DNA of 64,000 nt from an uncultured Acidobacteriota bacterium (GCA_963779415.1 CAVZYA010000001.1:736001-800000), one strand, 5' to 3'; counted from the stretch's first letter, positions 239 through 5,321 are shown. Notes: generated by a model from the sequence alone, not told the origin. Numbers and translations: made by a program.

Positions 239-484
239 ATGACCTGCCCGTACCTGAAGGAAGTCGTAATGCTCTATTGCGACGCCTGCCCCTTCAAGAA
301 GATGGTCCCACTGGACCATCTGGTCTCGACGAGCCCCTGCCTGGCGCAGGACTTTCGATCTTGCCGGCATTTCATCGAGGCGATTGCAACGGCCGCTGCC
401 GCCGTGGCAGCCGCTGCGGGGAAGGAGCCTTCGAACCCGCGCTCCGCTCCCTTTACTCCGTCGAAGGAGGTGAACCCGTCATGA
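239..484 (+). CDS. Small Cys-rich protein (C-x10-C-x2-C-x16-C-x7-C), possibly metal or Fe-S binding
   Basis: MTCPYLKEVVMLYCDACPFKKM...CLAQDFRSC; GC3-rich codons; stop overlaps the next ATG (ATGA); alternative start at 227. Confidence 0.7.
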   Translation: MTCPYLKEVVMLYCDACPFKKMVPLDHLVSTSPCLAQDFRSCRHFIEAIATAAAAVAAAAGKEPSNPRSAPFTPSKEVNPS

Positions 485-588
485 TCGCCGCCTTTCCTCT
501 CGCGATTCTCGCGCTCCTGATGCTGGGCTTCCTCCACGTGGCCGCGCGCCCCCACAAGAGACACCTCACCCGCGGATACGCCGGGTGA
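481..588 (+). CDS. 35-aa single-TM microprotein
   Basis: Strong RBS AAGGAGGT upstream; MIAAFPLAILALLMLGFLHVAA hydrophobic helix then a basic tail; overlaps the upstream stop. Confidence 0.55.
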   Translation: MIAAFPLAILALLMLGFLHVAARPHKRHLTRGYAG

Positions 589-602
589 CAGGAGTGATCG
601 AG

Positions 603-1496
603 ATGTCTTTCGACCGACGACAGATCCTGAAACTCGCGGCGGCAGCCGGCGCGGCGGCCGCGTTGCCCGGCCCGGACGCCGAGGCGGCCCTCGCGCGTCC
701 GTCCAAGGACGCCCGCGCGGTCCTCGTCGACACGACGAACTGCGTCGGCTGCCGTACCTGCGAGATGGCCTGCGCGGAGGCCAACAAGCTTCCCGACCCT
801 GAGAGCGACGTGGACTTCGGATCGCTCCGGACGACGGGGCCAGACCAGTTCACCGTCGTCAACCAGGGGACCATGAAGAGCCCCGGCGGAGACGACCGGT
901 TCGCGAAGACCCAGTGCATGCACTGCGTCGAGCCGGCCTGTGCCTCGGGCTGCGTCGTCCGCGCCCTCGAGAAGACGCCGGGCGGCCCGGTCGTCTACCA
1001 CGCGGACCGTTGCCTCGGCTGCCGGTACTGCATGGTCGTCTGCCCGTTCGGAGTCCCGAAATACCAGTACTCGAAGGCCGCCCCGATCGTCCGGAAATGT
1101 ACGTTCTGCGCCGAGCGACAGGCGGAAGGGAAGCCCCCGGCGTGCGCGGAGGCCTGTCCCAACAACGCGCTCGTCTTCGGCAGGCGCGCCGACCTCCTCG
1201 AGGAGGCCCGGCGCCGCATCTGGGGAAACCCCGGAAAGTACGTTCCGAAGATCTACGGCGAGGAGGAAGCCGGCGGGACGAGCTGGCTCTACATCAGCGA
1301 CGTCCCGCTCGAGACGCTCCGCCTCCCGCAGGACGTCGTGAAGTCCACCTATCCCGAGATGGCGGACCGCGCTCTCTCGGCCGTCCCCTTCGTCATCACC
1401 CTCTGGCCCCCTCTCCTGATGGGGCTCTGGGCGGCGAGCAAGCGGAACAAGAAGCTGACGGCCACCGGGACGGCACGCGAGGGAGACCATGAGTGA
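603..1496 (+). CDS. Tat-exported 4Fe-4S protein, HybA/HmcB/NrfC-like
   Basis: DRRQILK twin-arginine leader; CVGCRTCEMAC, CMHCVEPACASGC, CLGCRYCMVVC, KCTFC...PACAEACP; YGEEEAGGTSWLY; C-terminal TM. Confidence 0.92.
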   Translation: MSFDRRQILKLAAAAGAAAALPGPDAEAALARPSKDARAVLVDTTNCVGCRTCEMACAEANKLPDPESDVDFGSLRTTGPDQFTVVNQGTMKSPGGDDRFAKTQCMHCVEPACASGCVVRALEKTPGGPVVYHADRCLGCRYCMVVCPFGVPKYQYSKAAPIVRKCTFCAERQAEGKPPACAEACPNNALVFGRRADLLEEARRRIWGNPGKYVPKIYGEEEAGGTSWLYISDVPLETLRLPQDVVKSTYPEMADRALSAVPFVITLWPPLLMGLWAASKRNKKLTATGTAREGDHE

Positions 1497-2718
1497 GAAC
1501 GTCGTCCCCGCGGGAACGGGCGGCTTCTCCGTCGTTCGCGAAAAGCTCCTCCTCGGCCTCACGCCGAGGGAGTACCTCCGGAGCCTCCTGACGCCCGCCA
1601 ACATCCTGATCACCGCGATTCTCGCGGCCGGGATCCCCTGCCTCGTCCTCCGCTTCGCTAAAGGGCTGGGCGCCGTCACGAATCTCTCGCAGTCCTACCC
1701 GTGGGGCCTCTGGGTCGCCTTCGACGTCATCAGCGGCGTCGCGCTGGCGGCCGGCGGCTACACGGTGGCCTGCGCCGTCTTCATCTTCGGCCAGAAGCTC
1801 TATCTCCCCGTCCTTAGGGCCGCGATCCTGACGGGCTTCCTCGGCTATGTCCTCGTCCTCGTCGGCCTCATCGTCGACCTCGGCCAGCCGTGGCGCCTCC
1901 CCTACCAGTTCTTCCTGACGCCCGGCACGACGGCGGTGATGTACGAGGTCGGCTGGTGCGTCTTCCTCTACCTGATCGTCCTCGCCCTCGAGTTCGCCCC
2001 GACGGCCCTGGAGTGGCTGGGCCTCGACAAGCTGCGCAGGATCCTCGGCCGGGTGACGATCGCCATCATCGTCCTCGGCGTCACTCTCTCGACGCTCCAC
2101 CAGTCCTCCCTCGGAGCCTTCTTCCTGATGGCCCCGGGCAAGCTCCACCCGCTCTGGTATTCGCCATACCTCCCCGTCTTCTTCTTCATCTCCAGCATCG
2201 CGGCGGGGATCGGGATGGTGATCTTCGAGAGCACGGTGTCGCACCGGGTCTTCCAGGACCGCCTCGAGCCGAAAGCGCACGTCGACATCGACGGCATCAC
2301 CCTCGGGCTCTCGCGGGCCGGCGCTCTCGTCCTCTTCGCCTACTTCTTCATCCGGCTGCAGGGCCTCGCCGGCTCGGGCCGCTGGGACCTCCTCGCGACG
2401 GGCTGGGGCGCCTGGTGGGGCCTCGAGATGTTCGGCTTCGTCCTCCTGCCGTCGCTCCTCTTCGCGAACGCCGTGCGTCTCGCCGACGTGAAGCTCGCCC
2501 GGATCGCGGCCGTCCTGACGGTTCTCGGCGTCCTCCTGAACCGCTTCAACGTCTCCCTCATCGCGTTCAACTGGACGCTCCCGAACCGCTACGTGCCGGC
2601 CGCCGCGGAAGTCCTGATCTCCCTGACGATCGTCACGATCGGCGTCGTCATCTTCCGCTGGATCGTCAACCGGATGCCGGTCCTCGCCGGGCACCTCGAC
2701 CAGCGCGGTTCGCACTGA
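1489..2718 (+). CDS. NrfD/PsrC-family quinone-interacting membrane subunit, HybB/HmcC-like
   Basis: YPWGLWVAFDV..GVALAAGG, DLGQPWR, LSTLHQSSLG, KLHPLW, LNRFNV; about 10 TM helices. Confidence 0.92.
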   Translation: MSENVVPAGTGGFSVVREKLLLGLTPREYLRSLLTPANILITAILAAGIPCLVLRFAKGLGAVTNLSQSYPWGLWVAFDVISGVALAAGGYTVACAVFIFGQKLYLPVLRAAILTGFLGYVLVLVGLIVDLGQPWRLPYQFFLTPGTTAVMYEVGWCVFLYLIVLALEFAPTALEWLGLDKLRRILGRVTIAIIVLGVTLSTLHQSSLGAFFLMAPGKLHPLWYSPYLPVFFFISSIAAGIGMVIFESTVSHRVFQDRLEPKAHVDIDGITLGLSRAGALVLFAYFFIRLQGLAGSGRWDLLATGWGAWWGLEMFGFVLLPSLLFANAVRLADVKLARIAAVLTVLGVLLNRFNVSLIAFNWTLPNRYVPAAAEVLISLTIVTIGVVIFRWIVNRMPVLAGHLDQRGSH

Positions 2719-4176: not shown

Positions 4177-4210
4177 GAGGCCTCGCTGCACCCGCACTCA
4201 AGTACGCCGA

Positions 4211-4248
4211 CGTCATCGGCCGCGGAAGTTACTTCCGGGCCGATGACG
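4211..4248. repeat. Near-perfect inverted repeat (hairpin or protein-binding dyad)
   Basis: CGTCATCGGCC(G)CGGAAGT-T-ACTTCCGGGCCGATGACG; no U-tract. Confidence 0.55.
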
Positions 4249-4331
4249 GTCTTGGGCCGGCGTCGGCTTTTCGCCCACGCGGAGAGCCGGGTTACCATAG
4301 ATGTACGCCTCGGGAACAAGATGCTCCTACG

Positions 4332-5321
4332 ATGAAGAACGCGCCCTATCCCGCCATCGTGACGCAGAGCGACCGGATGCGGGCTCTCCTCGAGAGGATG
4401 CCCACGGTAGCGGCGTCCGACAGCCCGGTCCTCCTCCTGGGCGAGACCGGCGTGGGCAAGGAGCTGTTTGCCGACACCGTCCACCGCCTCAGCCCCCGGC
4501 GGGACGGCCCGCTCGTGAAGATCTCCCTCTCGGCCGTCCCGCAGGAGCTTCTGGAGAGCGAGCTGTTCGGCCACGAGCGCGGCTCCTTCACCCACGCCGT
4601 CCAGGCCAAGAAGGGGCTCTTCGAGATCGCCGACGGCGGAACGATCTTCCTCGACGACGTGGACGACGTCCCGCAATCCATCCAGCCAAAGCTCCTCCGC
4701 GTCCTTGAGTCGCACGAGGTGAAGCGCGTCGGCGCCACCGCGACTCACCCGATCGACGTGCGGCTCGTCAGCGCGTCGAAGGTGAACCTCAAGGAGCTCG
4801 TCGACCGGGGCCTCTTCCGCGCCGACCTCTACTACCGGCTCAACGTCGTCCCGATCGAGATCCCACCGCTTCGTCTCCGCCCGGAGGACGTCCTCCTCCT
4901 CGCCACGCACTTCATCGGGCGCTTCGCGCCCGGGAAGGAGCTTCGGATCTCGGCCGGCGCCGAGCGGGCCCTCGTGCGCTACCACTGGCCCGGAAACGTG
5001 CGCGAGCTTCGCAACGTCATCCAGCGGATCTCCCTCTTCGCGAAAGACGAGATCAGCCTCGAGGACCTCCCGCCCGAGCTTCTGGACGGGAACCCGGTCG
5101 ATCTCCTGACACGCGCCTGCGCGCGCTGCTTCGCCGAGCAGTCGCTCTCCTTCGGCGAGATCGTCGAGTGCCTCGAGACGAATCTCCTCCGTCAGGCTCT
5201 CGCGGAGGCCGGAGGCAACCGGAGCAAGGCCGCGCGGGCCCTCGGCCTTTCCCTCTCCACGATGCGGGACAAGCTCCGGAAGTACGGCCTCGACGGCGGC
5301 GCCGACCTCGACGTCGACTGA
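4332..5321 (+). CDS. Sigma54-dependent transcriptional activator (AAA+ plus Fis HTH), no N-terminal sensor domain
   Basis: GETGVGKE, ESELFGHERGSFTHA, FRADLYYRLNV, WPGNVREL, GNRSKAARALG. Confidence 0.92.
   Translation: MKNAPYPAIVTQSDRMRALLERMPTVAASDSPVLLLGETGVGKELFADTVHRLSPRRDGPLVKISLSAVPQELLESELFGHERGSFTHAVQAKKGLFEIADGGTIFLDDVDDVPQSIQPKLLRVLESHEVKRVGATATHPIDVRLVSASKVNLKELVDRGLFRADLYYRLNVVPIEIPPLRLRPEDVLLLATHFIGRFAPGKELRISAGAERALVRYHWPGNVRELRNVIQRISLFAKDEISLEDLPPELLDGNPVDLLTRACARCFAEQSLSFGEIVECLETNLLRQALAEAGGNRSKAARALGLSLSTMRDKLRKYGLDGGADLDVD

Follow-up and report, generated by a model that had tools for sequence, protein, structure and literature searches.

A tightly packed six-gene operon of sigma-54 type (196-4248, + strand) lies at one end of a 64-kb stretch of DNA from an uncultured Acidobacteriota bacterium and encodes a Cys-rich protein, a membrane microprotein, an exported Fe-S protein and an NrfD-family membrane subunit related to HmcB and HmcC, and two membrane-anchored proteins with the fold of the glycine-cleavage H protein (GcvH). 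The stretch, called the window here, is C1:736,001-800,000 of a 4.36-Mb genome in three contigs, and coordinates are those of the window unless a contig or locus is named. We read the operon as the local copy of an Acidobacteriota cassette that would form a quinone-linked redox module with cytoplasmic adaptors, placed under the control of a histidine kinase, and we put the probability of this reading at roughly 55%. Pairs of the NrfC/NrfD type are understood as wiring a catalytic subunit to the quinone pool; here no such subunit is found, across many families of the Acidobacteriota, a major soil and sediment phylum in which the pair travels with a kinase, a sigma-54 regulator, a protease and a lipoate-less H-protein fold. 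The cassette is apparently undescribed; our literature search found no description of a GcvH-like/NrfD/sigma-54 association, a membrane-bound non-lipoylated GcvH, an archaemetzincin-kinase cassette or a GcvH-fold receiver output, and the accessible part of a review of the NrfD family (PMC8076601) contains neither 'glycine' nor 'two-component'.

Organisation of the operon and its predicted promoter

The operon opens with the gene for the Cys-rich protein (227-484; 85 residues, or 81 from the ATG at 239), followed, all on the + strand, by those for the single-helix membrane microprotein (481-588, 35 residues), the HmcB/HybA-like Fe-S protein exported by twin-arginine translocation (Tat; 585-1496, likely start the ATG at 603, Pfam TAT_signal and Fer4_11), the HmcC/HybB-like integral membrane subunit with its presumed quinone site (1489-2718, Pfam NrfD), GcvH-like protein 1 (GcvH1; 2729-3409, Pfam GCV_H E 7e-17) and its paralogue GcvH2, of the same build (3427-4176, E 6e-17). 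Past the last gene stands a strong hairpin with no T-run after it (4211-4248, + strand). A preliminary description of this DNA had reported such a packed unit, and every element of it was present; open reading frame (ORF) and domain scans also confirmed its statement that 239-5321 holds no molybdoenzyme, hydrogenase, cytochrome or gcvP/T gene.

A sigma-54 promoter of the -24/-12 type is predicted at 196-211 (+ strand; TGGCTCaggtaATGCA) from the sequence match, in which GG and GC lie ten bases apart, from its conserved position and from the presence of rpoN in the genome. A TGGC-N9-GC element stands 30-39 nt 5' of the assigned start of the Cys-rich gene in all 12 regions compared (the window and 11 relatives). 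Further upstream, two or three palindromes resembling GTTGA-N5-TCAAC were seen by eye at matching places in the same 12 regions; those of this genome fall within the upstream region 1-107 (+ strand), at 15-29 and 93-107, with one across the window start (C1:735995-736009). The palindromes recur where the only nearby activator is of the receiver type, and at locus L002 where there is none, and in a scan of the whole genome the operon was the only place listed with two such sites near each other. They are presumed to be candidate sites of an NtrC-type activator. A sigma-70 promoter scan returned no promoters, and terminator-like sites numbered 4 against 3.8 expected. The 20 sequence-run holders listed for window 3000-11500, with shares all at or below 0.12, included no RNA datasets.

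The exported Fe-S protein and its membrane partner are relatives of HmcB and HmcC

The Fe-S protein carries a Tat signal, four sets of Cys motifs and a C-terminal anchor. Its NCBIfam matches were led by HmcB (NF045715; 333.7 bits, cut-off 420) and HybA (227.4 bits, cut-off 263), and those of the NrfD-family protein by HmcC (NF045714; 499.4 bits, cut-off 550) and HybB (273.2 bits, cut-off 450), while the latter protein passed the gathering score of the NrfD family itself (PF03916; 68.9 bits against 25.8). By these curated thresholds, the two are classed on profile scores as relatives, not members, of the Hmc and Hyb families. The pair first labelled 'NrfC/NrfD' lies closest to HmcB/HmcC and then to HybA/HybB, below every curated cut-off. 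No Nhc model was among the matches listed (all three for the HmcC-like protein and the best 25 of 35 for the HmcB-like one). The best solved relative of the Fe-S protein was FdnH (1kqf_B), and a sequence search of solved structures gave none for the HmcC-like protein.

Elsewhere in the window, a frame of about 1114 residues (40415-42976, - strand) contains both c7-like haem repeats and an HmcC-like NrfD part that matches the HmcC profile at E 1.7e-69, and similar frames of 1087-1110 residues occur in other Acidobacteriota genomes.

The GcvH-like proteins lack the lipoyl-lysine and are predicted to face the cytoplasm

GcvH1 and GcvH2 scored 61.8 and 62.2 bits against Pfam GCV_H (cut-off 22.2) and each has an N-terminal hydrophobic helix. 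In all 15 aligned GcvH-like sequences the lipoyl-lysine column is G, E or P, followed by a variable residue (K, Q, R, H); these proteins are therefore not expected to be lipoylated, in keeping with the preliminary description of the two proteins as non-lipoylated and membrane-anchored; the genome's ordinary GcvH (C2:871,397-871,771) has the lysine. Both proteins stayed well below the GcvH equivalog TIGR00527 (57.5 and 50.9 bits against 115.85) and the GcvH-related model NF045810 (32.9 and 25.2 bits against 150, with the fusion proteins described below at 26-45 bits). Where the source annotations name the GcvH-like or Cys-rich proteins at all, they do so as 'glycine cleavage system H protein' or 'hypothetical protein', and the former label misleads for proteins without the lipoyl-lysine. 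In an AlphaFold2 model of GcvH1 (mean predicted local distance difference test score, pLDDT, 80.1) the H-protein core follows an N-terminal helix and is itself followed by a helical C-terminal extension of about 60 residues with an invariant DGG. Its best Foldseek matches were H-proteins, led by that of T. thermophilus (1onl_A, E 3e-13, target-normalised TM-score 0.90), and the extension gave no Foldseek match.

Negative residues precede the anchor helix of the GcvH-like proteins and positive residues follow it, and because of these charges the GcvH domains are placed, by predicted topology, in the cytoplasm. Fusions to receiver domains agree with this placement. At loci L082, L083 and L085, the genes for HmcB, HmcC and the kinase are directly followed by one (L082:8682-9788, L083:8745-9866, L085:8548-9726) whose product is built of a membrane helix, a receiver (E 2e-29) and GCV_H (E 5e-18), and no DNA-binding regulator was found in these three clusters. 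Further matches with open frames of 372-378 residues (family label f41) may have the same helix-receiver-GCV_H build. At L081 and L084 a module of one 2Fe-2S domain and two 4Fe-4S motifs (Fer2_4/Fer4) stands ahead of GCV_H, and the distance to the activator, protease and Cys-rich genes is about 3.4 kb; these soluble fusions, which also hold a Cys motif before GCV_H (L081:9324-10634, - strand; L084:8778-10061), come from Acidobacteriota genomes of low GC content. A CxWM...C...CxxC motif precedes GCV_H in proteins of L074, L079, L085 and L071. Similar GCV_H clusters of 240 residues are, from an Atlas hint, commonest in Bacteroidota, the genome-group surveys reported here being centred on the operon's own lineage.

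A predicted complex of HmcC with GcvH1 scored 0.45, with the best of three controls at 0.00, at least 64% of contacts shared between runs and partner pLDDT at least 71. Of 157 solved complexes 116 attained the mark applied to such scores, as did 2 of 215 mismatched pairs, but only 18 of the 157 complexes, and both of those mismatches, attained it with a score of 0.60 or less. With gene linkage taken as the prior, the multimer prediction is a mild plus for a modelled contact of GcvH1 with HmcC, to which it lends weak support.

The Cys-rich domain is linked to the GcvH-like domain

The Cys-rich protein matched no Pfam or NCBIfam family and no signal peptide was seen in it by eye. Across 16 aligned sequences C18, C38 and C46 never change and C7 hardly does; three sequences have Y or F in place of C21. 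Its conserved ending, (K/R)EV, is explained by the GGAGG-type ribosome-binding site encoded there, as the Shine-Dalgarno sequence of the microprotein sits inside the 3' end of the Cys-rich gene; the microprotein ATG overlaps the stop codon of that gene (ATGA), and its frame is kept in 12 of 12 loci. An AlphaFold2 model of the Cys-rich protein was weak (mean pLDDT 66.6).

In a profile search of 1.84 billion cluster representatives, the Cys-rich domain was found in 249 (E <= 0.001). Among those listed, 57 have at least 150 residues; 34 of the 57 also contain GCV_H (E <= 1e-4), one of these with a receiver as well, and no Pfam family other than these two was found in the 57. The Cys-rich motif of the window (CPFLESIVVNYC..., BLASTP E 1e-6) likewise heads a protein ending in GCV_H at L075. 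Because of these fusions, the Cys-rich domain is taken, on domain architecture, to be a dedicated partner of the GcvH-like domain.

Close relatives carry a cytochrome c7 gene and an adjoining kinase, protease and activator

The nearest relatives in public genomes are Acidobacteriota metagenome-assembled genomes (MAGs), several of them labelled Thermoanaerobaculia. Scanning genomes with GcvH1 as the query identified 16 loci. Twelve of these (L001-L012) are close, and 10 of the 12 showed the gene order Cys-rich, (microprotein), HmcB, HmcC, GcvH1, GcvH2; L009 is truncated within HmcB. L002, which comes from the same MAG as L001, has the Cys-rich, microprotein, GcvH1 and GcvH2 genes only. This L002 operon (L002:8666-10432) has the same promoter and palindromes and lies beside genes for DRTGG-domain, NuoE-like and flavoprotein/Fe-S proteins. 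Its GcvH1 is one residue off that of L001, but its Cys-rich protein and GcvH2 show numerous differences from those of L001 (both have about 75% identity with their counterparts in the window), a contrast that suggests recent gene conversion.

Between GcvH1 and GcvH2, 10 of the 12 loci (L003-L012) hold a gene for a triheme cytochrome c7 of 110-115 residues (Pfam Cytochrome_C7, E 1.6e-14 and 3.8e-15) that the window, L001 and L002 lack. The preliminary description had considered that homologous operons might include a catalytic subunit or a cytochrome that is simply missing here; this proved so for the cytochrome, whereas no catalytic subunit is recurrent. The c7 protein of L003 had no match of at least 60 bits in the genome (weaker matches being filtered out), and 28 c7-like repeat matches were found elsewhere in it, mostly in long frames.

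Directly upstream of the operon in nine of the 12 close loci are genes for a HAMP-domain histidine kinase, a member of the archaemetzincin family (152.6 bits against the NF033823 cut-off of 145) and an NtrC-family sigma-54 activator of the receiver type. The orthologous trio of the present genome (76, 76 and 91% identical to that of L001) is found at about C1:649,199-652,775, with the receiver-type activator at C1:651,390-652,775. This puts the trio 84 kb upstream of the window, and the operon has no activator gene next to it on the 5' side. All five kinds of cassette gene are thus encoded in this genome, with kinase, protease and activator 84 kb from the operon; as the trio is adjacent in L001 and eight other close loci, gene order indicates that a rearrangement separated it from the operon here. 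The window copy is unusual in its displaced trio, its missing c7 gene and the unrelated input-less activator alongside it. Just upstream of the window, translations of C1:726,000-735,960 show three single-domain receivers, a 395-residue kinase-like ORF and a 1171-residue sensor-kinase-like ORF, and none of these signalling genes is orthologous to the trio.

The kinase of this genome has a CxxCH motif (CYACH, residue 119) between two membrane helices, as do those of L001, L003 and L007 and 24 of the 25 cluster kinases in the wider survey described below. Its sensor part matched PF21563 weakly (21.9 bits, cut-off 27), a family which we take to comprise the periplasmic haem-c sensor domains of Geobacter chemoreceptors, and a sequence search found no solved structure for it. 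The kinase is predicted, at the level of this motif, to bind haem.

The association extends across the phylum

To view the cassette more widely, a GcvH1-type profile was run against 400 other Acidobacteriota genomes, and about 19 kb was fetched around 40 of the stronger matches, one per genome; clusters were called by tblastn with proteins of the window and L001. The total number of profile matches, most of them to ordinary GcvH, does not enter the counts given here. Three of the genomes searched (G152, G049 and G024) are unpublished, and none of the 40 loci comes from them. Genes for both HmcB and HmcC stood in the cluster of the GcvH-like gene in 27 of the 40 loci (19 family labels), a kinase in 25, a full-length receiver-type activator in 22 and an archaemetzincin in 22, frequently in the order GcvH-like, HmcB, HmcC, kinase, activator, protease, and in 26 loci the GcvH-like gene lay beside a kinase or regulator. 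Four loci (L073, L075, L081 and L088) combined the GcvH-like gene with one or more of kinase, activator and protease and had no HmcBC pair, and in eight others the GcvH-like gene stood alone, with none of these partners. Among 969 unexplained ORFs of at least 70 residues within 2.5 kb of the clusters, no other family recurred in more than six loci, so no catalytic subunit is a conserved partner.

Genes for c-type cytochromes were present in seven of the 27 HmcBC clusters: c7-type at L049, L050, L051 and L079, 4-haem at L072, 5-haem at L087, and one at L085. At the last of these loci, HmcC is immediately followed by a long frame that contains 14 CxxCH motifs (L085:10701-14051), an Hmc-like arrangement with a large multihaem cytochrome.

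A reverse survey avoided counting inside a group defined by GcvH: it took the 30 best HmcC places in 151 genomes with flanks of 1.5 kb, and found HmcB adjacent in 30/30, a kinase in 16/30 and a GcvH-like gene in 12/30. When coordinates from the profile search were added, 23 of the 30 had a GcvH-like match on the same strand no more than 4.2 kb away, and the other seven had none nearby.

An input-less activator next to the operon probably belongs to a hydrogenase cluster

A sigma-54 activator gene (4332-5321, + strand), a neighbour outside the cassette, begins 155 nt past GcvH2. Its product matched Sigma54_activat (211.2 bits) and HTH_8 (48 bits), fell short of the PspF model (TIGR02974; 273.8 bits against 443.55) and is about 41-43% identical to the receiver-type activators. 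Only eight residues precede its AAA+ domain, in agreement with its earlier description as lacking an input domain. That description had also placed it with the other genes behind the one -24/-12 promoter, which holds for the six genes of the operon and not plainly for the activator, set apart by the hairpin and by its own conserved upstream stretch: the 4211-4248 hairpin has a 17-bp stem (minimum free energy -47.7 kcal/mol for 4170-4270, z -2.78), although it was not scored as a canonical terminator, and the roughly 90 nt before the activator gene are conserved with L001 apart from the operon. The activator adjoins the operon only here and in L001, and no match at E <= 1e-90 was found in 40 other genomes of the class (one of them, G024, unpublished), including three operon holders of the same family; the proposed link between it and the GcvH-like proteins is not borne out by any such co-occurrence. 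In L001 a gene for a hydrogenase maturation protease (HycI family) lies just upstream of the activator, and downstream follow DUF1697, a conserved 86-residue ORF behind a second -24/-12 element, and [NiFe]-hydrogenase genes. Because of the hairpin, the separate conserved upstream stretch, the lack of a close match in the other class genomes searched and the hydrogenase flanks in L001, the activator is probably part of the hydrogenase cluster, as judged from two genomes.

The [NiFe]-hydrogenase cluster, which has its own cytochrome b gene, begins about 3 kb downstream, here and in L001. Ahead of it (7060-7369) are a -24/-12-type element (CTGGCCCGGCGATTGCG, near 7075) and an 86-residue ORF (7109-7369) of no Pfam family, a region that aligns to L001 almost without differences, directly before the small-subunit gene. 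A palindrome upstream of this promoter (CGGGTACCCG) was considered as an activator site and dropped, with 6 matches against 4.0 expected. The small-subunit, large-subunit and cytochrome b genes (about 7360-10945) do not read through in one frame but are spread over several. Aligned to L001 (90.6% identity), they show 61 single-base indels, of which 48 are additional bases on the window side, mostly outside homopolymers. Related contigs from four metagenome runs are without the extra base at 7605/7606, 7667, 8900, 8986, 9264, 9395 (9397 against L001) and 9523/9524, and have the base missing from the window at 10810. The frame breaks are due either to pseudogene decay or to local assembly or consensus error.

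Proposed mechanism and alternative readings

Under the reading that we favour, HmcB and HmcC would connect the menaquinone pool with periplasmic haems by electron exchange; the haems could be those of c7 where it is present, of other cytochromes of the genome and possibly of the kinase itself. The kinase would read the periplasmic redox signal and, through its activator, switch the operon on via the sigma-54 promoter and the retained palindromes, with the trio acting in trans from its distant place in this genome. The GcvH-fold and Cys-rich proteins would sit at the cytoplasmic face of HmcC in an adaptor or regulatory role and not as lipoate carriers, and the input-less activator would serve the adjoining hydrogenase cluster and not the operon. 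Of the earlier proposal of a redox-signalling device in place of an enzyme, the general idea is thus retained, given the phylum-wide link to a CxxCH kinase, a sigma-54 regulator and receiver fusions, and the wiring to the input-less activator is given up.

Several points weigh against this reading. The 40 survey loci are the top of a match list and not a random sample, and 13 of them have no HmcBC within about 9 kb of the GcvH-like gene; because these loci and L002 are without the pair, GcvH-like proteins can work without it. The trio is distant from the operon in this genome and its control in trans is assumed. The palindrome pattern by itself is not significant in the 64-kb window (2 found against 0.72 expected, with 17 of 100 shuffles reaching 2), and the binding of the receiver-type activator to these sites is deduced from shared position alone. 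The sensor domain of the kinase reaches no curated family and no solved structure, its haem being argued from the motif, and the HmcC-GcvH1 score falls in a class that the prediction tool rates as likelier to be wrong than right, except where a contact was probable to begin with. A plain respiratory reading, moreover, fits the Fe-S/NrfD pair equally well.

That respiratory reading is the main rival, and we regard it as a possible, if less likely, account. The operon would encode a pared-down cytochrome:menaquinone oxidoreductase of the Nhc/Hmc type that has lost its c7 gene and is supplied with cytochromes from elsewhere, the GcvH-like, Cys-rich and microproteins would be structural or assembly factors, and the two-component system would set expression only. 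It draws on HmcB and HmcC as the best NCBIfam matches, on the c7 genes of the close operons and the c-type cytochromes of wider HmcBC loci, and on the c7-like repeats elsewhere in the genome, and two-component systems beside their target operons are commonplace. It leaves unexplained, however, the receiver-GCV_H fusions that take the place of a DNA-binding regulator at L082, L083 and L085, the four loci where GcvH-like genes accompany kinase, activator or protease with no HmcBC, and the kinase gene directly after HmcC in 16 of the 30 loci that were picked by HmcC; and with no lipoyl-lysine the GcvH fold has no known carrier chemistry here. The preliminary description had instead let the complex read the quinone redox state and relay it through the GcvH-fold and Cys-rich proteins to the input-less activator, which would control both the operon and the hydrogenase. 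An activator with no input domain does need control in trans, this one starts close behind GcvH2, and both flanking operons have -24/-12 elements. We nevertheless consider the relay improbable, since the activator had no match at E <= 1e-90 in the class genomes searched, three operon holders among them, has hydrogenase genes on both sides in L001 and is separated from the operon by the hairpin and a separately conserved stretch, while the palindromes are common to loci with no such activator nearby. Most improbable of all is the other earlier suggestion, that the pair is a second electron exit for the [NiFe]-hydrogenase and works in the manner of HybA/HybB in E. coli hydrogenase 2. HybA and HybB rank second among the NCBIfam matches and the hydrogenase cluster is a neighbour both here and in L001, but the hydrogenase has a cytochrome b gene of its own, no hydrogenase family recurs beside the cassette in the 40 loci, and in this assembly the hydrogenase genes are broken by some 61 single-base indels relative to L001.

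Returning to the kinase-controlled redox module, a bolder form of it, which we hold tentatively and think rather unlikely, would make the cassette a sensor of the quinone pool built from respiratory parts. HmcB would keep the periplasmic c-haem of the kinase in equilibrium with menaquinone through HmcC, in some lineages by way of c7, and the lipoate-less GcvH-fold and Cys-rich proteins would be a new cytoplasmic signalling output or adaptor, driven in some lineages by phosphorylation, as in the anchor-receiver-GCV_H proteins. If the pair does feed the haem of the kinase, this would be a new bacterial way to sense the redox state of the quinone pool; and if the GcvH fold is a signalling output, as the receiver fusions would have it, an old carrier fold has a second function.

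Comparison with known systems

The activator at 4332-5321 resembles PspF and HrpR/S in having an AAA+ sigma-54 domain and HTH_8 with no N-terminal input domain; it differs from PspF in that no PspA-like partner gene was seen and that it is linked to a hydrogenase cluster. The kinase shares with the Geobacter haem-c sensors a periplasmic domain with CxxCH between two membrane helices, but it is a histidine kinase and not a chemoreceptor, its PF21563 match is below the cut-off and its haem is predicted.

The GcvH-like proteins have the H-protein fold in common with the glycine-cleavage H protein. Relatives of the H protein can serve redox functions beyond glycine cleavage, as described for the lipoate-binding LbpA of Hdr-like sulfur oxidation in the available part of its source (PMC6067878). 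The GcvH-like proteins differ from the H protein, LbpA and the streptococcal GcvH-L in having no lipoyl-lysine, and in their N-terminal anchor, C-terminal extension of about 60 residues and fusions.

With HybA/HybB of E. coli hydrogenase 2 the pair shares the build of two proteins, a periplasmic anchored Fe-S protein and an NrfD-type subunit. It is not embedded among hydrogenase subunit genes as in a hyb-type operon, the hydrogenase being 3 kb off with its own cytochrome b and not a conserved neighbour, and its scores are below the Hyb cut-offs.

The closest likeness is to Hmc (HmcABCDEF) and Nhc (NhcABCD) of sulfate reducers, which also combine a Tat-exported multi-cluster Fe-S protein with a haem-less NrfD-type subunit and have a gene for a periplasmic multihaem cytochrome, as most close relatives of the window operon do. 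The microprotein we liken, as an assumption of ours, to the small hydrophobic HmcD/NhcD, so that three of the four kinds of Nhc subunit are represented here (microprotein, HmcB-like and HmcC-like) and the cytochrome gene is absent. The cassette is without a 16- or 9-haem cytochrome and without HmcE or HmcF: domains of HmcA (16-haem), HmcE (cytochrome b) and HmcF (cytoplasmic Fe-S) were not found in 227-5321, the relatives have at most the triheme c7, and the scores are below both Hmc cut-offs. According to the part of the NrfD-family review available to us, NhcC-type genes occur in two species of Acidobacteria and HybB genes in two (PMC8076601). What the cassette adds to the Hmc/Nhc plan are the GcvH-fold and Cys-rich proteins and the link to a haem-motif kinase, a sigma-54 activator and an archaemetzincin.

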